Below are positions 49,872 through 63,616 of a DNA stretch of 64,000 bases, one piece after another; positions within the stretch are counted from its first letter, which is position 1, and each line of letters starts with the position of its first letter. A program made the translations under genes and the position numbers. The stretch is from NCBI RefSeq assembly GCF_988242995.1, contig NZ_OZ547043.1; one strand, given 5' to 3'. Under the pieces are notes generated by a model, which did no database searches, was not told where the DNA came from, and saw nothing but the letters and a program-made list of their open reading frames with translations.

Positions 49872-50019
49872 ACTTTTTTCCTGCTTCACGGTCAGAGTAA
49901 ACAGCAAAACGCCGTAAGACCGGAAAGCAAAAGGTTTTAAAGTGATGAAAGGTCTATTATCATCGGCATATTACAGATGAGCCACGTACTGCTCGGGCCC
50001 GAAAAGGAATCAAATCACT

Positions 50020-50361
50020 ATGCGCTGTAAAACGCTGACTGCTGCAGCAGCAGTACTATTGATGTTGACCGCAGGCTGTTCCACTCTGGAGCGAGTGGTT
50101 TACCGTCCTGACATCAACCAGGGGAACTATCTGACCGCTAACGACGTATCCAAAATACGTGTTGGCATGACGCAACAACAAGTTGCGTACGCATTGGGTA
50201 CACCGCTGATGTCCGATCCATTTGGTACGAATACCTGGTTCTATGTCTTCCGCCAGCAACCAGGTCATGAAGGTGTAACGCAGCAAACGCTGACGCTGAC
50301 CTTTAACAGTAGCGGAGTGTTGACCAACATTGATAATAAACCTGCGCTGAGTGGTAACTAA
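50020..50361 (+). CDS. bamE: Outer-membrane assembly lipoprotein BamE (SmpA)
   Basis: 113-aa ORF with lipobox (LTAGCS). Confidence 0.92.
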
Positions 50362-50421
50362 TCATAAAGTTGCCCTCAAAGACGTTAAAAAGGTGCTCAA
50401 TGAGCACCTTTTTTCTGTCTG

Positions 50422-50712
50422 TTATTTATTCGCTGATTTTTCTGCTCGTTGCCTGCGCAGCTCTTTCGGATCGGCAATGAGAGGACGATAAATCTCCACC
50501 CGATCGCCATCATGCACAATATCGCTGAGTTTTGCCGGACGGCTGTAAATGCCGACTTTGTTTTTAGTTAAATCGATATCGGTACGCAATTCCAGCAAGC
50601 CACTGGCACGAATAGCTTCTTCAACCGTCGCACCCTCCTGCAGCGTCACGCGCTGCAGGTACTGCTTCTCAGGTAGCGCATAAGCCACCTCAACGGCAAT
50701 TTTACCTGGCAC
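50422..50712 (-). CDS. ratB: UPF0125 protein RatB (YfjF), antitoxin-like partner of RatA
   Basis: ORF track gives 124 aa; probable GTG start giving (M)[16 protein letters not shown] (96 aa); 5' end overlaps ratA 3' end by 11 nt. Confidence 0.7.
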
Positions 50713-51178
50713 TGTAAACCTCTTTCGCACGAACCGTAAAAGCCTGGACCATATTAGCCGCCAGCTCTTTAAACACGCGACCAAAGGCGAGTTCAATCAA
50801 CTTATTGGTAAACTCAAAGTCGAGATGAAACTCGATACGACACGCCTCCTGGCTCAGCGGCGTAAACTTCCATCCACCGATCAATTTCTTGAACGGCCCA
50901 TCCACCAGATTCATAAGAATACTTTGGTTACTGGTCAACTGGTTGCGGGTAGTAAACGTTTTGCTGATCCCAGCCTTAGAGACATCTACCGCTGCAGTCA
51001 TCTGCCCAGGAGTGGACTCCAGAATCCGACTTCCGGTACAACCCGGCAAAAACTGAGGATAAGACTGAACGTCATTCACTAACTGATACATTTGCTCCGC
51101 GCTGTAGGGTACCAGTGCGGTCCGGCTAATCTGAGGCATAACAATTTCCATCAACAAAAATCCAACAAATAATATCAT
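50702..51178 (-). CDS. ratA: Ribosome association toxin RatA (YfjG), SRPBCC family
   Basis: 158-aa ORF; divergent from smpB. Confidence 0.85.
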
Positions 51179-51309
51179 TTATCCTGCTGTAAAAAAAACG
51201 CTATCCCGGCGCTGGGTAACATCGGGTTCATGCTAAGATAGAGCCTTGTCCCCCGCAGGATTGATATGGGGTGTTTTCGATTTCAGATTACCGATGATTC
51301 ACGACGCTT

Positions 51310-51792
51310 ATGACGAAGAAAAAAGCACATAAACCTGGTTCAGCGACCATCGCGCTTAACAAGCGCGCCCGGCACGAATACTTTATCGAAGAAGAGTTCG
51401 AAGCGGGACTTGCCCTGCAAGGCTGGGAGGTTAAATCCCTGCGCGCAGGAAAAGCCAATATCAGCGACAGCTACGTCCTTCTACGTGATGGAGAAGCATT
51501 TCTGTTTGGCGCTAACATCACGCCAATGGCTGTGGCCTCCACGCATGTGGTGTGCGATCCTACCCGTACCCGCAAGTTACTTCTCAACCAGCGCGAACTG
51601 GACTCATTGTACGGTCGCGTCAATCGAGAAGGCTATACCGTAGTGGCGCTCTCCCTGTACTGGAAAAATGCCTGGTGCAAAGTGAAAATCGGCGTCGCCA
51701 AAGGTAAGAAACAGCACGATAAACGTTCAGATATCAAAGAACGCGAATGGCAGGTGGATAAAGCGCGTATCATGAAAAACGCCCACCGTTAA
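51310..51792 (+). CDS. smpB: SsrA-binding protein SmpB
   Basis: 160-aa ORF directly upstream of the tmRNA gene. Confidence 0.95.
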
Positions 51793-52006
51793 ACCTGCAC
51801 TGCAATTATTGACCCGCTCCTCACCGCGCCTCCCTCTCCGGCGGCGCGAATGCACATCTTATTGGCTATCACATCCGACACAAATGTTGCCATCCCATTG
51901 CTTAATCGAATAAAAATCAGGCTACATGGGTGCTAAATCTTTAACGATAACGCCATTGAGGCTGGTCATGGCACTCATGAATCTGGTATACTTACCGTTA
52001 CACATT

Positions 52007-52369
52007 GGGGCTGATTCTGGATTCGACGGGATTTGCGAAACCCAAGGTGCATGCCGAGGGGCGGTTGGCCTCGTAAAAAGCCGCAAAAAATAGTCGCAAA
52101 CGACGAAAACTACGCTTTAGCAGCTTAATAACCTGCTTAGAGCCCTCTCTCCCTAGCCTCCGCTCTTAGGACGGGGATCAAGAGAGGTCAAACCCAAAAG
52201 AGATCGCGTGGAAGCCCTGCCTGGGGTTGAAGCGTTAAAACTTAATCAGGCTAGTTTGTTAGTGGCGTGTCCGTCCGCAGCTGGCAAGCGAATGTAAAGA
52301 CTGACTAAGCATGTAGTACCGAGGATGTAGGAATTTCGGACGCGGGTTCAACTCCCGCCAGCTCCACCA
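52007..52369 (+). ncRNA. ssrA: tmRNA (SsrA / 10Sa RNA)
   Basis: 363 nt from GGGGCTGATTCTGGATTCGACGGG to ...CCCGCCAGCTCCACCA; contains the tag reading frame region; tRNA-like 3' end. Confidence 0.96.
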
Positions 52370-52483: not shown

Positions 52484-52531
52484 GGTATACGTTTAGGTAT
52501 ACGGTAAGATGTATACCTAAATGCGTATACC
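52484..52531. promoter_or_regulatory. Repeat cluster at the int 5' end (GTATAC-containing repeats with an 11-bp inverted repeat); candidate Int arm-type sites or int operator
   Basis: TTTAGGTATAC-N8-GTATACCTAAA perfect inverted repeat (about 52492-52521) abutting the ATG at 52521, plus two more GGTATAC/CGTATACC copies. Confidence 0.45.
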
Positions 52532-53753
52532 AATTCATGAAGGAACGGCCAAAGTGGCAAGAACGACACGTCCCCTGACCAACACTGAAGTTCTGCGCGC
52601 TAAAGCGTTAGAAAAGGATCTAACGTTGCATGATGGCGATGGCCTTTTTCTGCTCGTTAAAACGAACGGTAAGAAATTATGGCGTTTCCGCTACCAAAAG
52701 CCAGTAACAAAACAGCGGACCATGATTAGTTTAGGAACCTTCCCTGCACTATCCTTGGCTGAAATCAGAAATGTGCGAGCTAAGTATCTTTCCTTGTTAG
52801 CCAAGGGGATCGATCCACAAACACACAATGAACAAGTCACACAACAACAACAAATTGCAGTAGAAAGTATTTTTTCAAACGTTGCTAAAAATTGGTTTGC
52901 CATTAAACGCAATAGCGTTACACCTGATTATGCAAAGGATATATGGCGATCCTTAGAGAAGGACATTTTCCCTGCTATCGGAGAGATTCCTGTTCAGGAA
53001 ATAAAAGCACGTATATTAATTGAAGCCCTAGAACCAATTAAGGCCCGCGGTGCACTCGAGACTGTTCGTCGTTTGGTGCAACGTATTAACGAAATTATGA
53101 TCTACGCTGTCAATACCGGATTAATTGAGGCTAATCCTGCGTCAGGTATTGGCATGGCTTTTGATAAACCCAAAAAGCAAAATTTGCCAACGCTGCGGCC
53201 AGAAGAATTACCTAAACTGATGCATTCTCTAGTAATGTCAAACCTGTCTATTCCTACTCGTTGTCTGATCGAATGGCAACTACTGACACTCGTTCGCCCT
53301 TCAGAAGCCTCTGGCGCCCGCTGGGATGAGATCGATTTAGAATCCAAACTTTGGAGAATTCCTGCTGAAAGGATGAAAGCAAAGCGCGAACATATAGTTC
53401 CTTTATCATCTCAAGCTTTAATTATTCTTGAAGTAATGAAACCCATAAGTGCTCATCGTGAACATATATTTCCTAGCAGGAATAACCCTCAAGAACCGAT
53501 GAATAGCCAAACAGCAAATGCAGCATTAAAACGCATAGGGTACGGAGGAAAGTTAGTTGCACATGGACTCCGTTCTATTGCCAGCACTGCATTAAATGAA
53601 GCCGAATTTAATTCTGACATTATTGAATCAGCTCTTGCACATGTTGATAAAAATGAGGTGAGAAGAGCATATAACCGCTCCACTTATCTTGATAAACGTA
53701 AAGAGATGATGGCTTGGTGGGGAAATTTTATATATAAAAATAATTCATTATAA
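52521..53753 (+). CDS. int: Tyrosine recombinase (phage integrase, P4/CP4-57 family)
   Basis: 410-aa ORF with C-terminal catalytic region (HGLRSIAST...LAHVD...RRAYNRSTYLDKR); real start may be the downstream GTG (about 52551, reading VARTTRPLT). Confidence 0.88.
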   Translation: MRIPIHEGTAKVARTTRPLTNTEVLRAKALEKDLTLHDGDGLFLLVKTNGKKLWRFRYQKPVTKQRTMISLGTFPALSLAEIRNVRAKYLSLLAKGIDPQTHNEQVTQQQQIAVESIFSNVAKNWFAIKRNSVTPDYAKDIWRSLEKDIFPAIGEIPVQEIKARILIEALEPIKARGALETVRRLVQRINEIMIYAVNTGLIEANPASGIGMAFDKPKKQNLPTLRPEELPKLMHSLVMSNLSIPTRCLIEWQLLTLVRPSEASGARWDEIDLESKLWRIPAERMKAKREHIVPLSSQALIILEVMKPISAHREHIFPSRNNPQEPMNSQTANAALKRIGYGGKLVAHGLRSIASTALNEAEFNSDIIESALAHVDKNEVRRAYNRSTYLDKRKEMMAWWGNFIYKNNSL

Positions 53754-53764
53754 AAGGTATTACA

Positions 53765-54799
53765 ATGAATATTGATTCTATAAAACTTCATTTACAAAAT
53801 TTTTTCACAAATAATCCAACTGTTCTTATCGGTTCTGGCCTCTCTCTCGGTGAGGGGATTCCAGGTATGAAAACATTGGGAGAACATCTTAATACAACTA
53901 TCCCCAAATTAGTAAGCGGGGATCTTATAAGAGAATGGGGTATCATAAGTTCCAAACTAAATAATGGTATGGGACTTGAAGATGCCATGGCATTTCTTAA
54001 AGATGAAAGTGAACTTATCCCATTAATTATTCAGCACACCGCAGATCTTATTTTAAAGCATGAAAATACTGTAATATGCTCTGTAATCAATGGAGAAAAA
54101 AATCTAGCATTTACATCTTTATTGAATCACTTAACTTTTAATCAAAATGAATTGATAATTATAACTCCAAACTATGATAGACTAATTGAAATAGCATGTG
54201 AAATTGCTGGTCTAGAAATTTCAACAGGATTTATCAATAGTTATCATTGTATAAATAATCCTGAAGTTGAGTTAGATAAATTCAAAATCACCCACTCTAT
54301 CAAAACCACACGAGGTAAATCTACAGTTCAAATTAGAACTAAAAAACACGTTAAAATATTTAAACCTCATGGTAGTCTTGATTGGTTCAAGGCTGACGAT
54401 AAAATTATCAGGACCAGCTTTCAAAATAAACATAAAAGATTAATTATTACACCAGGTACAAGTAAATTCAGAGCTGGATATCAGCAGCCTTTTGATTGGC
54501 ATAGAGAAAAAGCAAACCATTATATCAAAAGAGCAAAATCACTATTAATTATTGGCTATGGGTTTAATGATGAGCAGTTAGAAGTACATTTGAAATCAAA
54601 AATACGTGAAAAAATACCTGTTTTATTAATGACATATGAATTGACATCAAACGCTCAAAAAATATGTGATGATAATCCTTCTATAACATATGTTATTGCA
54701 GAAGGAAACAATTCCATCGTTTGTATCGATGGCATTAAATATAAAATCGAAAAGAATATTTGGTCTTTAAATGAGTTTGTTAAAGAGGTACTTAAATAA
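53765..54799 (+). CDS. SIR2-like NAD+-binding protein (predicted NADase effector); cargo gene 1
   Basis: 344-aa ORF. Gly-rich NAD-binding loop VLIGSGLSLGEG, TPNYD motif (catalytic Asn codon 54170-54172), KPHGS motif (His codon 54367-54369) and second Rossmann motif IIGYGFND. Low GC; stop overlaps next gene's start (TAATG). Confidence 0.8.
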   Translation: MNIDSIKLHLQNFFTNNPTVLIGSGLSLGEGIPGMKTLGEHLNTTIPKLVSGDLIREWGIISSKLNNGMGLEDAMAFLKDESELIPLIIQHTADLILKHENTVICSVINGEKNLAFTSLLNHLTFNQNELIIITPNYDRLIEIACEIAGLEISTGFINSYHCINNPEVELDKFKITHSIKTTRGKSTVQIRTKKHVKIFKPHGSLDWFKADDKIIRTSFQNKHKRLIITPGTSKFRAGYQQPFDWHREKANHYIKRAKSLLIIGYGFNDEQLEVHLKSKIREKIPVLLMTYELTSNAQKICDDNPSITYVIAEGNNSIVCIDGIKYKIEKNIWSLNEFVKEVLK

Positions 54800-56583
54800 T
54801 GGAATATTACGTCATTAACACTGATGAAACATGCTTTATCGGACGAATCGCAAATGTTGATACCGATCGTGCTATTATCATTTCAGAGTCTCCAGAGATC
54901 ATACAAGAACTAACCGTTTTTGACTTGGTTGCTATTGAAGGCAATACCCCCACAGAGTTTCTTGTTGGTATCATTGAAAAAGTAAAACGCTCTATTGGAG
55001 AAATACAAACTATTGATACTGAAGAAAATATTGAAGATGACAGTGAAAAAGATTTCGATAATATCTTCCAAACTTATTCTATCGATCATGATATTCTTCA
55101 AGTAGCTCTTATCGGCACTTTCTGGGAGGTTTACGGGGATAGAAGGAAAATTTTTAAAAGAGGAGCACAATATTTTCCAAAAGTTGAAAAACAAGCATTT
55201 CTTATAAAAAAAGACAGTCTTGAGAAATTAATGTCGGCAGTCGACAATGATACTCCTGATGAGCTAAAACTCATACTAGGCAACTATGGAAATACCAATT
55301 CACGAGCAGTTGCAAATGGGGATAAATTATTTCAGAGACATGCTGCCCTATTGGGGAGTACTGGTTCAGGTAAAAGTTGGACAGTTGCGTCATTACTAGA
55401 ACAAGCCTCAAAATTAAAATACAACAATATTGTACTTTATGATCTTCATGGTGAATACAAAACTTTATCTGATACACATAATAAATCGAACCGCCCGAGC
55501 ATAGCCGATTATTTTAAAATTGCAAGCCCAGGAAATATCGACGATGTAAATAGTATTTATGTACCTCATTGGTTATTAAACAAAGAAGAAATGCTATCAC
55601 TGTTGTTAGATAGAAGCGATAGCAATGCACCTAATCAGGCAGCAAGATTTAGCTACCACGTGAGAGAGCTAAAAAAAGAATACATCACACACAACAGATT
55701 AATACACTTAGAAGATTGTTTGACTGTTGATGCTCCAATACCCTACTCTATCGAGGATCTTATTAGCAGACTGCACGATGATGATCAAGGTATGAAAAAA
55801 GGTACTAATAATAAAGAAATAAAAGGTGATTGGAATGGAAAACTAACAAGATTCATAAGCAGGTTAAGAACAAAAGTAGACGACAAGAGGAACTGTTTTC
55901 TATTCTCAAATAAACCAGAACACAACCAATATGATTGGTTGGAGAAATACGCTTGTAAAATTTTAAAATCAGATAGCACAGATCATGGCATTAAAATAAT
56001 TGATTTTTCTGAAGTTCCTTCAGATATTATGCCTATTGTTATTGGTGTATTGACCAGATTTTTATACAACGTCCAATTTTGGAGATGTGAGACCGAACGA
56101 ACCCCTATAGCATTCGTTTGTGACGAAGCTCATATTTATTTACCCGCTAAGGATACCACTGAGGCTGAAACAAAAATATCCTTATCAATATTCGAGAAAA
56201 TTGCTAAAGAAGGCAGAAAGTACGGAGTATCTTTATTAGTCGTCAGCCAAAGACCTTCTGATGTTAGCAGAACAATACTAAGTCAATGTAATAACATAAT
56301 TTCTCTCAGACTAAGTAATTATAGAGATCAACAGGTAGTTAGTCGGTTAATGCCTGATTCATTGAGTTCATTAACATCCATACTACCAATTCTTGATACT
56401 GGGGAAGCAATAGTTCTTGGCGACTCTGTTCTATTACCAGCTAGAATAAAATTGAATCCACCAACACTCAAGCCCGATAGCGCAACCAGAGCTTTTTGGA
56501 ATGAGTGGGGGGCAATTGAAGCAAAAGAAATCTCTATAGCAAATGCTGTTGAATCACTCAGGAGACAATCTCGTAATCGCTAA
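54799..56583 (+). CDS. HerA/FtsK-type ATPase; cargo gene 2
   Basis: 594-aa ORF. Walker A GSTGSGKS (Lys codon 55372-55374), Walker B FVCDEAH (56122-56133), and KEGRKYGVSLLVVSQRP arginine-finger region typical of HerA. Translationally coupled to the SIR2-like gene. Confidence 0.8.
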   Translation: MEYYVINTDETCFIGRIANVDTDRAIIISESPEIIQELTVFDLVAIEGNTPTEFLVGIIEKVKRSIGEIQTIDTEENIEDDSEKDFDNIFQTYSIDHDILQVALIGTFWEVYGDRRKIFKRGAQYFPKVEKQAFLIKKDSLEKLMSAVDNDTPDELKLILGNYGNTNSRAVANGDKLFQRHAALLGSTGSGKSWTVASLLEQASKLKYNNIVLYDLHGEYKTLSDTHNKSNRPSIADYFKIASPGNIDDVNSIYVPHWLLNKEEMLSLLLDRSDSNAPNQAARFSYHVRELKKEYITHNRLIHLEDCLTVDAPIPYSIEDLISRLHDDDQGMKKGTNNKEIKGDWNGKLTRFISRLRTKVDDKRNCFLFSNKPEHNQYDWLEKYACKILKSDSTDHGIKIIDFSEVPSDIMPIVIGVLTRFLYNVQFWRCETERTPIAFVCDEAHIYLPAKDTTEAETKISLSIFEKIAKEGRKYGVSLLVVSQRPSDVSRTILSQCNNIISLRLSNYRDQQVVSRLMPDSLSSLTSILPILDTGEAIVLGDSVLLPARIKLNPPTLKPDSATRAFWNEWGAIEAKEISIANAVESLRRQSRNR

Positions 56584-56608
56584 TAAAAATATTATCTAGC
56601 AACGCGCA

Positions 56609-56627
56609 GTGCTTTCCCCGCCTCGCC
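56609..56627 (-). other. P2/P4-type cos site (19-nt cohesive end sequence)
   Basis: Window reads GTGCTTTCCCCGCCTCGCC, the exact reverse complement of the P2/P4 cohesive end GGCGAGGCGGGGAAAGCAC as recalled; flanked by GC-rich dyads. Confidence 0.8.
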
Positions 56628-56791
56628 CGCCCGCTTTGCGGGGCGGTTTCAGTGCAGTTGCACTGACACGCTCAGGCCGCGCCGGGAATGGCGCGGTCTG
56701 CAGAAAATGAGGCAGGAAAACGCATGCAAAGCCATGCACCTTATCGATGCATGGCTTTTTTCAGTAAAAACGGGCGGATTTTCGGGGAATT

Positions 56792-57364
56792 TTACACAGA
56801 CTGATGTGATGCCAGTTGCGCACTTTTACGCGAAAAAATCATGTTCTGCGCAGGAGTGAATTTTTCACGGCTGTCATCCACCGAAGCCGCGTCAGGCCTG
56901 AATCCGATGGTCGTTAAAATGTCGCTATCCTGTGCGGAATAATTAATTTTTTCACCCTTCGCAAGCCAGGACTGGAGGGCTTCACGCAGGGCATCTGTGG
57001 CACGCTGTATGGCACAGTTTCGGGCAATGGCCGTCAGCTCACTGTAGCCCATCAGCTCCGGTGCCAGTGCCGCCGCCAGTGCTGTGCCGTGCTGCTGCAT
57101 AAAATCATTCAGCCGGTCGCGGATGCTGATGTGCTGAACGGCTTCATGCGAACGAATATAACGACCGGCGGCCTGATTCACCTGCCATTTTCTGACTTCG
57201 ATAATATTGCGTAATTCGTCCAGGCGACTGACGTTTCTGCCTTCTCCTGACAGAAGCCGCAGGTATTCCTGTTCGGCCGCTGCCAGCTCATTTTTGCGTT
57301 GCAGCCATGCTGCTTTGTTATTCTGACAGGTGTCAAAGGCCTGCTGTAAGGCTGTGCTTTCCAT
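56792..57364 (-). CDS. psu: P4 Psu-like protein (polarity suppression / capsid decoration)
   Basis: 190-aa ORF, the same length as P4 Psu, in the conserved psu-delta-sid order next to cos. Confidence 0.75.
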   Translation of the reverse strand: MESTALQQAFDTCQNNKAAWLQRKNELAAAEQEYLRLLSGEGRNVSRLDELRNIIEVRKWQVNQAAGRYIRSHEAVQHISIRDRLNDFMQQHGTALAAALAPELMGYSELTAIARNCAIQRATDALREALQSWLAKGEKINYSAQDSDILTTIGFRPDAASVDDSREKFTPAQNMIFSRKSAQLASHQSV

Positions 57365-57437
57365 CGTTATCTCTTTCTCATCATGCTGAAGAATAAAAAT
57401 ACGGTGTGCGGCGACGGCCGGTGTTAACCGGCAGCCC

Positions 57438-57938
57438 TCATTCCAGACGCAGCGAATATGATTGTGTTTTTAACCGTACTGGCGGCAGTTCCTGTTTTTC
57501 ATGCAGGCGTTCTGCCAGTTCGTCCGGCGTGACCGGGCGGACAATGAAACGGTTGATGGTCTGAAGCGTTTTAAACACCAGACCACAGCCCGGATCCGTG
57601 CACACATAAAAACGCTCGGTGACTTCCTGAGACAGACGCCGCGATGTTCTTGACAGTGCAAGGCCTTTACATCTCCGACAACAATATCCGGTAACAAGCA
57701 TTCTTTTCGGCCGTTTCATACTGCCGGAGGCTGACGTCAGTGAATCGCGGTATCTCTGTTTGCCTGAAATGTATTCCATTCCTGAATCTTTACAGTCAGA
57801 GAAAAAGCTTTCACTCGCTTCAAATGTCGCAGAGCAATAAATATTCCGGCACTGTGCAATCATTATCTTGGTGCCATCGTCCATGAAATGTGCGCGACGG
57901 GTGTGAGCAACATGTCCACACGACGGGCAGTAAATCAT
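57438..57938 (-). CDS. delta: P4 Delta-like late-gene activator (tandem Ogr-type zinc fingers)
   Basis: 166-aa ORF with two C-x2-C...C-x4-C zinc-finger units (MIYCPSCGHVAH...CRNIYC and YCCRRCKG...CTDPGC). Confidence 0.85.
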   Translation of the reverse strand: MIYCPSCGHVAHTRRAHFMDDGTKIMIAQCRNIYCSATFEASESFFSDCKDSGMEYISGKQRYRDSLTSASGSMKRPKRMLVTGYCCRRCKGLALSRTSRRLSQEVTERFYVCTDPGCGLVFKTLQTINRFIVRPVTPDELAERLHEKQELPPVRLKTQSYSLRLE

Positions 57939-58669
57939 GACAGCAGCCCTCTGGCCTTAAGCTCTGCTCCCTGCTGGTCTATTTTGTCCTGCCACACCTT
58001 GCGCTGTGCCGGTGTGCCTGCCACCTCATAATCCATGTGCGGGAGTGTTGCCGCTGACAGTCCGGCCAGCCGGAGAACCGGCTCGCCGGTGAGGCTGATT
58101 TGCATCTGTTTTATTTTCTGTTCCAGCGATGATTTCACCTGCTGCATGACAGCCTTTTCCGGCGCGACGTAGCCCTGATGGCCGGTGGTGTTGGCGAGCG
58201 GATTTTCCTGTACCAGGATGCTCAGATGCATTGCCCGGACAAGCGCCTCACAGGTTTCATTCAGGGCGTGTTCCAGCTCATGCTCTGCATACAGACTCAG
58301 CAGGTGATGATGTGCCTTCCGGTAGGCGGTGGCCGTGCTGTCACACGCCCCTTTCAGGCGTTCACATTCAAAATTCAGCACCACGGCCAGATTGTCATAT
58401 TCCTGTACCAGCTCCCGGCGTGCCACGCGCTCAATGTGGCGCTGTTTCAGCTCATCGCTCAGGACACCACCGGCTGCACGAAAGGCCGTGCGCCAGTCGT
58501 CAGCGTCGTTTCCGTCGGCCTGCGTCAGCGCATTTTTTTCCTGCTCTGCCCGTTCAATGGCCGTGATGGTCTCATCCATCAGGCGGGCGTTCTCAAGATG
58601 AGCGGCTCTGGCCTTTTCCAGTTGTGCCAGCGCGGGTTGCAGATATTCAGGGATGGTGTTGTCAGACAT
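57935..58669 (-). CDS. sid: P4 Sid-like external scaffold (capsid size determination) protein
   Basis: ORF track gives 266 aa; start trimmed to MSDNTIPEYLQPALAQLEK (244 aa, the P4 Sid length) with RBS; coiled-coil-rich. Confidence 0.75.
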   Translation of the reverse strand: MSDNTIPEYLQPALAQLEKARAAHLENARLMDETITAIERAEQEKNALTQADGNDADDWRTAFRAAGGVLSDELKQRHIERVARRELVQEYDNLAVVLNFECERLKGACDSTATAYRKAHHHLLSLYAEHELEHALNETCEALVRAMHLSILVQENPLANTTGHQGYVAPEKAVMQQVKSSLEQKIKQMQISLTGEPVLRLAGLSAATLPHMDYEVAGTPAQRKVWQDKIDQQGAELKARGLLS

Positions 58670-58703
58670 TTTCCGGCTCCTCGTCACTTCAGGTTGAGAA
58701 AAT

Positions 58704-58759
58704 TGTGACGTACACCGGACAACAACACGACGCATTGCAGATGTGCCAGCCCTGACACA
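58704..58759. promoter_or_regulatory. Two TGT-N12-ACA dyads; candidate Delta/Ogr activator sites for the divergent late promoters (Psid / PLL)
   Basis: TGTgacgtacaccggACA (58704-58721) and TGTgccagccctgacACA (58742-58759) match the P2/P4 late-promoter activator element TGT-N12-ACA. Confidence 0.55.
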
Positions 58760-58838
58760 GGAGACTCATCCTCAGACCGGCAAGCCAGGAAAAGGTCGCA
58801 GGAAAAACCGGCTTACTGTTTGTTTTTTTATATTTTAC

Positions 58839-58942
58839 TGTTCACCTCTGTTCACCTTAAGAAAAAAGATAAGTAATACAGTAAGTTAAAGGATGAACAA
58901 TCGCAGTAATGACTGTTCACCGTCTGTTCACCACTGTTCACC
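58839..58942. repeat. Candidate P4-type replication origin (ori) iteron cluster
   Basis: Five direct copies of TGTTCACC (58839, 58849, 58914, 58925, 58935) plus a degenerate inverted copy; about 4.8 kb from the crr repeats, as in P4. Confidence 0.7.
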
Positions 58943-59221
58943 CGCTCATGGACTTTTTGTGCTGTTTACTACTGTTTGTTTTTATTAATTCGCCGGGAAT
59001 GAATAAGAAGAAACGATTTGTATTTCACTATAAAAATTACGAATTGCTTTAAGTGGCTTTAAATGACTTTAAGTGGAGATGAACAAAAAATACACAAGCA
59101 TTGTAAGGCTGCCGGAACAAATCCCCCCTGTTGCGTCTGCCGAAAATATTCACAAAATAAAGCGCTACCCGAAGCCGGACGGACTTATCCGGTGCTGTAT
59201 GGACATTAACGAGGTAGCCCG

Positions 59222-59488
59222 ATGCAATCTGTTTTTTCTTCCCCGTCTCCCGCCCCAGTGACGCCACTGATGCCGCTGCCGGACATCACGCAGGAGCGTT
59301 TTTTACGTCTGCCGGAAGTGATGCACCTGTGCGGCCTGTCACGCTCGACCATCTATGAACTTATCCGTAAGGGGGAATTTCCGCCGCAGGTGAGTCTTGG
59401 CGGTAAAAATGTGGCCTGGCTGCACTCTGAAGTCACCGCATGGATGGCCGGGCGCATTGCCGGACGCAAACGGGGGTACGACGCATGA
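59222..59488 (+). CDS. vis: AlpA/Vis-family helix-turn-helix regulator
   Basis: 88-aa ORF with AlpA-type HTH ([27 protein letters not shown]), the length of P4 Vis. Confidence 0.75.
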
Positions 59489-60084
59489 TGATGCCCGCTC
59501 TGCAAAAAGTCCCTTTTTCTGGCTTGCCTTTTTCCGGCATTTGCGGATATAGTTTTTCCGCTGCCGCAAAATCGGCAGCCGGGCGTGGAAACCCGAGTAT
59601 GTTATCGGCGACATATGACGCGCCATGCGTCTTTTTTTGTGTCGCAATCAACGCCACAGAGCGCCAGATTATGGTGTGGTGTGTGGTCAGTCGAGCAAAT
59701 GGCACTCCGTGCATTCTGCCCGCGTCCGCTCATTATACCGCAGAGTCAATGGTAGCTCAGGCGGGGCAGCCTCCGCGCTGGCCGGTTTCCGATAACGCCG
59801 GTATTTCCACCCCCGTCTGGGCTATCGCCATCGAGCGTGGAAACTCCGGCGATAGCGTCATTTACGCTGTTATCGGAGGTTGCCTTATGGCTACGACCCT
59901 TATCCCCTCACACCCTGAATTTGTCTTTGTGTTTGCGGCTGTCCGTCGCGCAGACCGTCATCCCCGTATCTGTATGCTTCGCACCGTCGCCGGTGATGAA
60001 CGCAGCGCCCGCCGTTCCCTTGTCCGTGACTATGTGCTCTCCCTTGCTGCCCGTCTGCCGGTGGTGGAGGTGTCCCGTGCGTAA
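59485..60084 (+). CDS. Hypothetical protein, P4 orf199-like (coding status uncertain)
   Basis: 214-aa ORF trimmed to an internal Met to give 199 aa; Ala/Pro-rich and GC-rich, so it could instead overlie the RNA-based immunity locus. Confidence 0.35.
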
Positions 60085-60364
60085 TAAAAAAGCCCCTCAG
60101 ACCGTCTCAGCACGTCATGACGCCCGTGAACACCTCAGCATTGAGGCTTACCATAAGCTCAACCGCGCCAGCGCCGTATCCCAGTTTGTTGGGGGTGATT
60201 TGATTCACCGTGAACTCTCCGGCCTGCATCAGCTCTACATTCCGCATATTTTCAGCTACCTGAATGAAGATATTGATTTTGTGCTGAATGAGCTGAAAGC
60301 CAAAGGCCTGTGCCGCGATTTTCTCGCCCAGCAGAAAGACCGGGGAGACAGGACGCATGTTTGA
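60077..60364 (+). CDS. Hypothetical protein, P4 epsilon-like (possible helper-prophage derepressor)
   Basis: About 95 codons from a putative GTG start within ORF 59837-60364 ([25 protein letters not shown]...); size and position match P4 epsilon. Assignment is by analogy only. Confidence 0.4.
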
Positions 60365-60812
60365 TTTTCCCCAGCCCGGTGAGATTTACCGTTCTGCCGG
60401 TTTTCCCGATGTGGCCGTGGTCGGCATTCTGGAAGACGGTATTCCGTGGGAAATGCCGTACCGCTGCCCGGACATTGTCTGGAACCCGTACCGCCGTAAA
60501 TTCAGTATCCTTGTGCGTATCCTCGCTGACGGGCGCACCACAGACATCCCGCTGGGGCGTTTTCTGCGGGAATTTACCTGTGACCGTCCTGACCTGTTTA
60601 AACGCAGCCCCGTAAACCGGCATGCGGTACTGAAAGAAATGGCCGGAGACCCGGAATTACAGAAATGGCGGGAGAAATATCTGGATATTTACCCGCAGGA
60701 CCCTGTTCCGGTCAGCCGGGCGGCACCGGTGGCGCGGGAATGGCGGGAAATTCCCCGCACGGAGCCTGACCCGGAAACCACCCCGGATAACAGTTACCGC
60801 AATTATCTGTAA
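60357..60812 (+). CDS. Hypothetical protein, P4 orf151-like
   Basis: 151-aa ORF whose start overlaps the previous ORF's stop; position upstream of alpha as in P4. Confidence 0.6.
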   Translation: MFDFPQPGEIYRSAGFPDVAVVGILEDGIPWEMPYRCPDIVWNPYRRKFSILVRILADGRTTDIPLGRFLREFTCDRPDLFKRSPVNRHAVLKEMAGDPELQKWREKYLDIYPQDPVPVSRAAPVAREWREIPRTEPDPETTPDNSYRNYL

Positions 60813-60947
60813 TTAAAAAACGACACCCGAAAAATTAAATGTGCGTATTCGCGCAGGGATACGCACGTCTTCAGGAGACGCAGATATGCCTTATCAGTTA
60901 ATGCAACCGGCACGGAATGCAGTCATCTGTCACAGGGAGGAAAACAA

Positions 60948-61268
60948 ATGAAAACACCCTTACCGCCCGTCTTACGCGCTGCCCTTTACCGTCGCGCTGT
61001 CGCCTGTGCCTGGCTGACCGTGTGCGAACGTCAGCACCGCTACCCGCATCTCACCCTTGAGTCACTGGAGGCGGCCATCGCCGCTGAGCTGGAAGGCTTT
61101 TATCTGCGCCAGCACGGTGAGGAAAAAGGGCGTCAGATAGCCTGTGCCCTGCTGGAAGATTTAATGGAATCCGGCCCCCTGAAGGCCGCGCCGTCGCTGT
61201 CCTTTCTCGGGCTGGTTGTGATGGATGAACTCTGTGCCCGTCACATAAAAGCGCCGGTACTGCACTGA
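60948..61268 (+). CDS. Hypothetical protein, P4 orf106-like
   Basis: 106-aa ORF directly upstream of the alpha gene. Confidence 0.55.
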
Positions 61269-61282
61269 AGGAGAACAACACC

Positions 61283-63616
61283 ATGAAAATGAACGTAACC
61301 GCCACCGTCAGCCATGCGCTCGGCCACTGGCCGCGTATTCTCCCGGCGCTGGGGATTCAGGTGCTGAAGAACCATCATCAGCCCTGTCCGGTCTGTGGCG
61401 GGAGTGACCGCTTCCGTTTTGATGACAGGGAGGGGCGCGGCACCTGGTACTGCAATCAGTGTGGTGCCGGTGACGGCCTGAAACTGGTTGAAAAGGTGTT
61501 TGGTGTCTCCCCGTCCGACGCGGCCGCAAAGGTGGCTGCCGTGACCGGCAGTCTGCCCCCGGCTGACCCGGCAGTGACGGCTGCCGCCGTTGCTGAAACA
61601 GACGCTGCCCGGAAGAACGCCGCCGCACTGGTACAAACCCTGATGGCAAAAACCCGTCCCGGAACCGGTAACGCCTACCTGACCCGCAAGGGCTTTCCCG
61701 GCCGGGAATGCCGGATGCTGACCGGCACACACAGAGCCGGTGGCGTGAGCTGGCGCGCCGGTGACCTTGTGGTGCCACTGTATGACGACAGCGGCGAACT
61801 GGTTAACCTTCAGTTAATCAGTGCTGACGGCCGTAAGCGCACCCTGAAAGGCGGACAGGTCAGGGGCACCTGTCACACCCTTGAAGGACAGAATCAGGCC
61901 GGAAAACGTCTGTGGATAGCGGAGGGATACGCGACCGCACTTACCGTGCATCACCTGACCGGTGAAACGGTGATGGTGGCGCTTTCTTCCGTGAATCTCC
62001 TTTCTCTGGCCAGCCTTGCCCGGCAGAAGCATCCGGCCTGTCAGATTGTCCTTGCTGCTGACCGTGACCTCAGCGGTGACGGCCAGAAAAAAGCCGCCGC
62101 AGCCGCAGATGCGTGTGAAGGTGTTGTTGCCCTGCCGCCGGTCTTCGGTGACTGGAATGATGCCTTCACGCAGTACGGCGGGGAAGCCACCCGTAAGGCC
62201 ATTTATGATGCCATCCGGCCACCGGCTGAAAGCCCGTTCGACACCATGAGCGAAGCGGAGTTTTCCGCCATGAGTACCAGCGAAAAGGCCATGCGTATCT
62301 ATGAGCATTACGGCGAGGCGCTCGCGGTCGATGCCAACGGCCAGCTTCTGTCCCGCTATGAAAATGGTGTCTGGAAGGTGCTGCCGCCACAGGACTTTGC
62401 CCGGGATGTGGCCGGGCTGTTTCAGCGTCTGCGAGCGCCGTTCTCCTCCGGGAAGGTGGCCTCCGTGGTGGACACCCTGAAGCTGATTATTCCGCAGCAG
62501 GAAGCCCCCTCCCGCCGCCTGATTGGCTTTCGTAACGGCGTGCTCGACACGCAGAACGGCACGTTCCACCCGCACAGTCCGTCACACTGGATGCGCACCC
62601 TGTGCGATGTGGATTTCACCCCGCCGGTGGACGGTGAAACGCTGGAAACCCACGCCCCCGCCTTCTGGCGCTGGCTTGACCGTGCCGCCGGTGGCCGTGC
62701 GGAAAAACGCGACGTGATTCTGGCTGCACTGTTTATGGTGCTGGCAAACCGCTACGACTGGCAGCTCTTTCTGGAGGTGACCGGTCCCGGCGGCAGCGGC
62801 AAAAGTATCATGGCCGAAATCGCCACCCTGCTGGCCGGGGAGGATAACGCCACGTCGGCCACCATCGAGACGCTGGAATCCCCGCGTGAACGTGCCGCGT
62901 TAACTGGCTTCTCACTGATACGCCTGCCGGATCAGGAAAAATGGAGCGGCGACGGTGCCGGACTCAAGGCCATCACCGGCGGCGATGCGGTGTCCGTTGA
63001 CCCGAAATACCGGGATGCGTACTCCACGCACATCCCGGCGGTGATTCTGGCCGTGAACAATAACCCGATGCGCTTCACCGACCGCAGCGGCGGCGTGTCA
63101 CGCCGGCGGGTGATTATTCACTTCCCGGAACAGATAGCCCCGCAGGAGCGCGACCCGCAGCTTAAGGACAAAATCACCCGCGAGCTGGCGGTCATCGTGC
63201 GTCACCTGATGCAGAAGTTCAGCGACCCGATGCTCGCCCGGTCACTGCTTCAGTCCCAGCAGAACTCAGACGAGGCACTGAACATCAAACGGGATGCCGA
63301 CCCGACGTTTGATTTTATCGGCTATCTGGAAACCCTGCCGCAGACCAGCGGCATGTATATGGGGAACGCCAGTATCATCCCGCGTAATTACCGTAAATAC
63401 CTCTATCACGCCTATCTGGCCTACATGGAGGCAAACGGCTACCGGAATGTACTCAGTCTGAAAATGTTCGGACTGGGGCTGCCGGTGATGCTGAAAGAAT
63501 ACGGGCTGAATTACGAGAAGCGCCATACCAAACAGGGGATACAGACCAACCTGACGCTGAAAGAAGAAAGCTACGGCGACTGGCTGCCAAAATGTGACGA
63601 CCCTGCAACAGCCTGA
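61283..63616 (+). CDS. alpha: P4 alpha-type replication protein (zinc-finger primase - TOPRIM - helicase - ori-binding)
   Basis: 777-aa ORF (P4 alpha length). N-terminal zinc finger CPVCGGSDRFRF...WYCNQCG, TOPRIM-like acidic patch (AADRD), helicase Walker A (TGPGGSGKS). Confidence 0.88.
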   Translation: MKMNVTATVSHALGHWPRILPALGIQVLKNHHQPCPVCGGSDRFRFDDREGRGTWYCNQCGAGDGLKLVEKVFGVSPSDAAAKVAAVTGSLPPADPAVTAAAVAETDAARKNAAALVQTLMAKTRPGTGNAYLTRKGFPGRECRMLTGTHRAGGVSWRAGDLVVPLYDDSGELVNLQLISADGRKRTLKGGQVRGTCHTLEGQNQAGKRLWIAEGYATALTVHHLTGETVMVALSSVNLLSLASLARQKHPACQIVLAADRDLSGDGQKKAAAAADACEGVVALPPVFGDWNDAFTQYGGEATRKAIYDAIRPPAESPFDTMSEAEFSAMSTSEKAMRIYEHYGEALAVDANGQLLSRYENGVWKVLPPQDFARDVAGLFQRLRAPFSSGKVASVVDTLKLIIPQQEAPSRRLIGFRNGVLDTQNGTFHPHSPSHWMRTLCDVDFTPPVDGETLETHAPAFWRWLDRAAGGRAEKRDVILAALFMVLANRYDWQLFLEVTGPGGSGKSIMAEIATLLAGEDNATSATIETLESPRERAALTGFSLIRLPDQEKWSGDGAGLKAITGGDAVSVDPKYRDAYSTHIPAVILAVNNNPMRFTDRSGGVSRRRVIIHFPEQIAPQERDPQLKDKITRELAVIVRHLMQKFSDPMLARSLLQSQQNSDEALNIKRDADPTFDFIGYLETLPQTSGMYMGNASIIPRNYRKYLYHAYLAYMEANGYRNVLSLKMFGLGLPVMLKEYGLNYEKRHTKQGIQTNLTLKEESYGDWLPKCDDPATA

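Follow-up and report, generated by a model that had tools for sequence, protein, structure and literature searches.

Organisation of the ratA–ratB locus

The analysed stretch of DNA (64,000 nucleotides of contig NZ_OZ547043.1, in the following referred to as the window) carries the E. coli ratA–yfjF(ratB) operon on its minus strand at 50422-51178, between bamE and smpB/ssrA. The coding sequence of yfjF/ratB extends over 50422-50712 (minus strand) and comprises 291 nt, i.e. 96 codons plus the stop codon TAA at 50424-50422. Upstream of it, ratA (pasT), counted from its Met14 codon, encodes a START/Coq10-like lipid-binding protein of 145 aa (50702-51139, minus strand) and ends with a TAA at 50704-50702. 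Both genes overlap by the 11 nt of 50702-50712 (GTGCCAGGTAA, minus strand). The neighbouring genes are located on the plus strand: bamE (50020-50361) is convergent to ratB, while smpB (51310-51792) is divergent from ratA and followed by ssrA, the gene of tmRNA (52007-52369). Between the convergent bamE and ratB, a GC-rich hairpin flanked by A/T runs was found at 50387-50413, comprising a 12-bp stem with a T-tail on the plus strand and followed by TTTTTAACG on the minus strand. This element is likely a bidirectional intrinsic terminator shared by both genes.

A 1.9-kb query matched 5,425 of 5,426 complete E. coli genomes, with 99.6% identity for the top match, beneath which smpB, ratA, yfjF and bamE are annotated. 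In K-12 MG1655, yfjF (b2618) comprises 291 nt with an 11-nt overlap with ratA at coordinates equivalent to those of the window, and a PGAP record 99.6% identical to the window likewise contains the GTG-start gene and the 11-nt overlap. The 41-nt ratA/ratB junction showed 100% identity in at least 4,239 of the 5,426 complete genomes. The earlier note on this DNA had proposed a 96-aa RatB starting at a GTG at 50712 and overlapping the 3' end of ratA by 11 nt. Both statements hold true: sequence, K-12 and PGAP annotation and conservation agree on the 96-aa product, and the overlap can be read directly from the sequence and is identical in both annotations. The GTG start and the overlap are thus correct but ordinary, and already known from reference annotations and the literature.

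In the housekeeping region at 50000-51900, no more than 154 of the 5,426 complete E. coli genomes share at least 99% identity with the window, while the others reach 95-99%; the top matches are Hong Kong soil and environmental strains. Judging by this distribution, the window belongs to one of the rarer E. coli lineages. Directly downstream of ssrA, a P4-like satellite or island covers 52521-63616, with genes for an integrase (52521-53753), Psu (56792-57364, minus strand) and a primase-helicase (61283-63616) as well as a SIR2-HerA anti-phage defence pair (53765-54799 and 54799-56583; PADLOC E=1e-124 and 9e-210).

The coordinate 51178, which the earlier note had adopted as the end of the region, corresponds to the K-12-style start of ratA (158 aa) and is a mis-annotation, as PGAP, NCBIfam, ribosome profiling and mutagenesis all give 51139. 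In PGAP, ratA comprises 438 nt and 145 aa, i.e. a Met14 start. RatA matched Pfam PF03364 (Polyketide_cyc) with E=1.3e-38 and 132.5 bits over profile positions 1-126 of 126, and hence contains the full-length START-type domain of the START/Coq10 family, and position 1 of the NCBIfam model NF007999 (304.8 bits) falls on residue 14. In the TetRP ribosome profiling data the gene is listed as yfjG with a 'new site' 39 nt downstream (MPQISR...), and M1S/M14I mutagenesis places the start at Met14 (PMC11988751). The same 2025 IJMS paper reported that the native promoter yields the Met14 form only, that the -10 box lies inside the annotated ratA ORF with the 5' end of the mRNA downstream of this box and of Met1, and that -10 mutations abolish the ratA mRNA (PMC11988751). 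All loci compared here have retained the ATG at 51139, and in many other Enterobacterales genera the frame upstream of Met14 is closed by stop codons within 4-12 codons. Altogether, Met14 at 51139 is the true start of ratA and the annotated ATG at 51178 an over-extension; the 13 additional codons (51140-51178, minus strand) are non-coding and represent promoter and 5' leader.

An extended -10 element, TGaTATTAT, is located within this stretch at 51169-51177 (minus strand), its TG being the TG of the annotated ratA ATG (51178-51176), and the motif TGnTATTAT (or TACTAT) is kept across most Enterobacterales loci. Transcription of ratAB would accordingly proceed from an extended -10 sigma-70 promoter at 51177-51169 that overlaps the mis-annotated ATG. 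In the smpB-ratA intergenic region upstream of the -10 element, a short hairpin with a T8 run was observed (GCGTTTTTTTT, 51191-51213, minus strand); the T-run is conserved across Enterobacteriaceae and is situated in the -35 region of the promoter of ratA.

The start codon of ratB

The GTG start codon of ratB (50710-50712, minus strand) is embedded in the ratA codons AGT-GCC. Its Shine-Dalgarno (SD) sequence AAGAGGT at 50718-50724 (minus strand) lies within the ratA codons Lys-Glu-Val, with a spacer of 6 nt between GAGG and the GTG. For the duplex with the anti-SD an energy of -6.5 kcal/mol was calculated at this start, compared to -3.2 kcal/mol for the GTG at 50730, -3.8 kcal/mol for the GTG at 50688, -2.2 kcal/mol for the TTG at 50796 and -0.9 kcal/mol for a TTG at codon -24.

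The position of the GTG agrees with the length of the encoded protein family. RatB matched Pfam PF03658 (Ub-RnfH) with E=5.7e-35 and 119.9 bits (cut-off 23.7) over profile positions 1-83 of 83, and NCBIfam NF002490 with E=2.1e-45 and 153 bits (cut-off 75) over positions 3-95 of 96; these full-length matches identify it as a member of the RnfH family. The alignments to both profiles start at residues 32-33 of the 124-aa ORF that is open in this frame, which corresponds to residues 4-5 counted from the GTG, and only the GTG-start RatB has the form typical for the family, a protein of about 90-100 aa starting with the domain. Compared to the GTG, the N-termini of 140 homologues (representatives of 50%-identity clusters) showed a median offset of +2 aa, and 86% were located within +/-6 aa; long N-terminal extensions were rare and mutually unrelated. 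Matches to structures in the PDB were obtained for HI0395 of Haemophilus influenzae (2hj1, E=1.1e-28) and for A. vinelandii RnfH (8ahx_H, E=2.6e-13), with alignments starting at RatB residues 4 and 7, respectively, and thus near the GTG-defined N-terminus.

In published work, pasI was cloned with its 'original SC (GTG)', i.e. the GTG was treated as the native start (Fino et al., PMC7424257), and RatB was undetectable with N- or C-terminal tags (bioRxiv 10.64898/2026.05.04.722385). A search covering the TRAINSPOTTER and TetRP supplementary data revealed no experiment that maps the N-terminus of RatB or its initiating ribosome directly. The TRAINSPOTTER N-terminomics supplements hold no entry for yfjF, ratB, ratA or b2618, and the TetRP supplementary text files, which list yfjG, do not contain yfjF, which only means that it is unreported there.

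The 124-aa ORF, which the earlier note had described as ATG-initiated, extends the ratB frame by 28 codons (50713-50796, minus strand) into the 3' part of ratA. It starts with a TTG at 50796-50794 directly after an in-frame TGA at 50799-50797, and a direct reading of the sequence revealed no ATG in the ratB frame from 50796 to 50712. Since the ORF begins with a TTG, the refutation that had been suggested for the short RatB, translation from an upstream ATG at 50796, was ill-posed. The TTG falls on the ratA codons for Ile-Glu (ATT-GAA), and Siccibacter has a TCG at this point and hence no start codon.

For a comparative analysis, 80 loci from GTDB species genomes were used, with 41 Enterobacterales loci showing the GTG arrangement. 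The start in other species was taken as the candidate with the best SD beside the homology start, which is our own heuristic. In the 41 GTG-type loci, an in-frame stop codon occurs 11 to 56 codons upstream of the ratB start, and in 18 of the 41 species it lies within the 28-codon extension. Twelve of the 41 species possess no upstream start codon whatever, and in none of the 41 does an upstream candidate match the SD quality of the ratB GTG. From -84 to -13 of the ratB start, the entropies of the three ratA codon positions were 0.38/0.25/1.33, and therefore the second codon position is the most variable one when this stretch is read in the ratB frame. Downstream of the ratB start, the wobble pattern shifts to the ratB frame (0.97/1.07/1.65). 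The 124-aa ORF consequently arises when the 3' end of ratA is read in the wrong frame as far back as the next stop codon, and the extension is non-coding in the ratB frame. The suspicion of an over-extension expressed in the earlier note was thus justified, both by the stop codons in 18 of 41 species and by the upstream variation following the ratA frame only.

That a start codon is found close to the 3' end of the preceding gene carries no significance by itself; what counts is its conservation. The GTG is invariant in 42 Enterobacterales sequences. Over 40 Enterobacterales, only 7 of 131 ratA wobble positions were near-invariant. Five of these belong to Met or Trp codons, which have no synonymous alternatives, and are uninformative. 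This leaves two frozen sites: at -8 the G of GAG, which is part of the SD core GAGG, and at +1 the T of the GTG. The wobble G of the SD was kept in 38 of 40 species. At +1, the ratA codon is AGT, CGT or GGT (Ser, Arg or Gly), and the T never changes. Both sites directly show that the SD and the start codon of ratB are under selection, the T staying fixed although the amino acid of RatA varies. According to our own arithmetic, the chance that both frozen sites among 126 degenerate positions would be exactly these two is about 1 in 7,875. Such an analysis of frozen wobble sites represents a clean and reusable validation of overlapping start sites from comparative data alone.

The remaining start sites in this frame have to be weighed against these results. 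That the 124-aa ORF from the TTG at 50796 encodes the actual RatB, or a longer form made in addition to it, can practically be dismissed. No stop codon interrupts this ORF in the window, and products of about 125 aa (P0012, P0013, P0023) are reported by some automated gene callers, but its TTG has a weak SD and lies on ratA codons, its 28 extra codons vary at codon position 2 and are interrupted by stops, and family profiles as well as most homologues start at the GTG. Use of a different in-frame GTG, either at 50730 (codon -6, 102 aa) or at 50688 (codon +8, 88 aa), is highly improbable. A GTG at +8 is frequent in other species because it codes for the conserved Val of a V-E-V motif; however, both SDs are weak, the +8 GTG adjoins a GAGG without spacer, and a start at this point would drop the first beta-strand residues aligned in 2hj1 and 8ahx_H, while the -6 GTG is found in a minority of species only. 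Homology, ribosome-binding signals, comparative genomics and frozen synonymous sites agree and strongly support the GTG at 50712 as the true start of ratB. Altogether, it is very probable that the locus is a bicistronic ratA-yfjF(ratB) operon, ordinary and already annotated, with RatA produced from Met14 and a 96-aa RatB from the GTG at 50712. The practical use of this result is an annotation check: the short RatB is confirmed, and the long-ORF calls of about 125 aa in some databases are over-extensions.

The ratA/ratB overlap and possible translational coupling

The start codon of ratB lies over the stop region of ratA and its SD (50724-50718) inside the upstream gene, as is characteristic for translationally coupled overlapping gene pairs. 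The overlap is also conserved in evolution: with the starts in other species assigned by the heuristic, 68 of 72 adjacent ratA-ratB pairs overlap, by 8 nt in 38 loci, 11 nt in 20, 4 nt in 5, 17 nt in 3 and 20 nt in 2 loci. Overlaps were seen across Enterobacterales, Alteromonadales, Aeromonas and beta-proteobacteria. Among the other pairs, one has a 70-nt gap and three are probably non-overlapping, with no start candidate near the homology start. Counted by locus, ratB starts with GTG in 53, with ATG in 24 and with TTG in one case. At four loci (L047 from Acerihabitans, L065, L066 and L075), ratA and ratB are adjacent and apparently non-overlapping, with gaps of about 14 to 146 nt, and three of these four show no obvious start codon beside the homology start. 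In nine Pasteurellaceae loci (L051, L052, L054, L056, L057, L061, L062, L068 and L072), ratB has an ATG start and ratA is absent within 2 kb on either side, so that RatB is not always tied to RatA.

Since the overlap is conserved, translational coupling of ratB to ratA is plausible as far as it can be deduced from the sequences. The assertion of the earlier note that the overlap implies coupling goes too far, as an overlap alone is not sufficient, the SD and GTG are predicted to be accessible and a conserved masking structure was not found. In the minimum free energy fold of 50660-50790, the SD is base-paired to a CCUUU located upstream of it; however, this fold is no better than that of shuffled sequences (z = -0.57), and RNAalifold returned no consensus structure for 42 Enterobacterales junctions. 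The stretch from SD to GTG is predicted to be slightly more accessible than its surroundings (0.48 vs 0.39 unpaired). An obligate, structure-gated coupling was rejected as unsupported on the basis of these three results.

A consensus scan of the minus strand revealed no internal ratB promoter inside ratA. In a recent preprint, which also noted the ratA-ratB overlap, deletion of ratA lowered RatB by a log2FC of -6.75 (bioRxiv 10.64898/2026.05.04.722385). As inferred from the standard Keio design, a deletion of this type from the annotated ratA start would remove the -10 box. Because of this probable loss, the decrease of RatB cannot separate transcriptional from translational dependence. According to the proteomics data that Fino et al. 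quote, a cell contains about 30 molecules of RatA and about 50 of RatB (PMC7424257).

With the stop codon of ratA located 8 nt downstream of the ratB start, a ribosome that completes ratA would terminate on top of the ratB initiation region. This probably helps ratB to start, both through reinitiation at close range and because the site is prevented from folding. Since its SD is good and accessible, ratB is probably capable of autonomous initiation as well. The likely mechanism would thus be a facilitation, in which terminating ribosomes are delivered onto an already competent site.

Three other interpretations of the overlap were considered. RatB might be translated entirely independently from its own SD and GTG, with the overlap reflecting gene packing without any coupling function. 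The fairly strong SD, the predicted accessibility, the missing masking structure and the Pasteurellaceae loci, which imply that RatB can be expressed without an upstream ratA, are in line with this, but the overlap is retained in nearly all pairs although its length shifts, and RatB falls strongly, if in a confounded experiment, when ratA is deleted. We regard independent translation as a real possibility that falls short of an even chance. It is very unlikely, by comparison, that ratAB is a type II toxin-antitoxin module in which the overlap couples antitoxin to toxin synthesis. Database names keep 'type II toxin-antitoxin system toxin RatA', and older work, summarised in PMC11988751 and bioRxiv 10.64898/2026.05.04.722385, described full-length RatA/PasT as toxic and a rescue by PasI in liquid culture. 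However, toxicity comes only from the non-physiological Met1 form of RatA (PMC11988751), which the native promoter does not produce, and Fino et al. saw no growth inhibition (PMC7424257). Zhang & Inouye found neither a RatA-RatB complex nor neutralisation on plates by co-expressed ratB (both summarised in bioRxiv 10.64898/2026.05.04.722385). Furthermore, ratB deletions are viable, ratA alone complements the phenotypes, and RatA is widespread without RatB (PMC7424257), just as RatB occurs without RatA in Pasteurellaceae. The gene order is atypical as well, since in type II modules the antitoxin gene lies upstream and here ratA precedes ratB. The defining properties of such modules, growth inhibition by the toxin and its neutralisation by binding of the antitoxin, were reported to be lacking (PMC7424257, PMC11988751, bioRxiv 10.64898/2026.05.04.722385), and on this published evidence the toxin-antitoxin system was rejected. 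PasT/RatA was instead described as a non-toxic Coq10 homologue (Fino et al. 2020, PMC7424257) and as a ubiquinone shuttle (bioRxiv 10.64898/2026.05.04.722385). According to the published work from 2020 to 2026, RatA is a Coq10-like START-domain ubiquinone-binding protein and no toxin. The description of a 'toxin-like RatA and its partner' in the earlier note is therefore obsolete, the toxicity being an artefact of the Met1 start (PMC7424257, PMC11988751, bioRxiv 10.64898/2026.05.04.722385). The wrong K-12-style start of ratA gave rise to ten years of publications on a "RatA toxin" and is still carried along in product names.

The third interpretation concerns the role of RatB. Being retained in beta- and gamma-proteobacteria alike and under selection, as indicated by the frozen sites, the overlap could serve the co-production of RatA and RatB in a fixed ratio, with RatB acting as an adaptor on an RnfB/RsxB-like iron-sulfur protein or a respiratory complex. 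This speculation is based on the RnfH-RnfB contacts in A. vinelandii, on the bacterial two-hybrid interaction of a RatB/RnfH-like protein from Legionella with an RnfB-like one, and on the ubiquinone role of RatA. If true, it would tie the function of RatA to the membrane electron-transfer machinery. A RatA-RatB complex was not detected in published work, and such a role is rather improbable. An RnfH subunit of the Rnf/Rsx complex would be expected to be encoded together with rnfABCDGE; the neighbours here, ratA, bamE, smpB and ssrA, include no rnf/rsx gene. Facilitation by terminating ribosomes at a competent ratB start remains the preferred reading of the overlap.

Comparison of ratAB with known systems

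The RnfH family shows a ubiquitin-like beta-grasp fold according to the Pfam family description and Iyer et al. 2006, who also noted the conserved neighbourhood of RnfH with a START-domain protein, SmpA and SmpB. Deletion of yfjF lowered the readthrough of UGA and UAG, and an N-terminally His-tagged ASKA yfjF clone failed to complement (PMC10570021), which fits the reported intolerance of RatB towards tags. Like RatB, A. vinelandii RnfH (8AHX chain H) and HI0395 (2HJ1) are small cofactor-less proteins of the RnfH family. In contrast to RatB, whose gene adjoins ratA, bamE and smpB, A. vinelandii RnfH is encoded in the rnf operon and is a structural, cytoplasmic subunit of Rnf1 contacting RnfB and RnfC.

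With type II modules, ratAB shares two small, adjacent, overlapping genes that were historically named toxin and antitoxin. Unlike in these modules, the putative toxin is located upstream, its toxicity results from a wrong start codon, a neutralising complex is not known and the 'antitoxin' is dispensable. The pasI/pasT pair of UPEC CFT073 is more closely related: the published primers carry GAGGTCTACAGTGCCAGGTAA (PMC7424257), which shows that SD and GTG are retained, and a T>C change at a wobble site (Fino et al., PMC7424257).

The closest system is K-12 yfjF/ratB (b2618) and ratA (b2619), with the same synteny (recN-bamE / yfjF-ratA / smpB-ssrA), the GTG start, the 11-nt overlap and a 111-nt ratA/ratB junction identical to that of the window. 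The only difference between both RatB proteins is a single residue, I65 in the window compared to S65 in K-12. Classical translationally coupled overlapping gene pairs include trpE-trpD and trpB-trpA. As in ratAB, the start codon of the second gene overlaps with the stop region of the first, whose coding sequence also harbours the SD. The ratA/ratB overlap differs in comprising 11 nt instead of the common 1 or 4 nt, and its coupling is putative.
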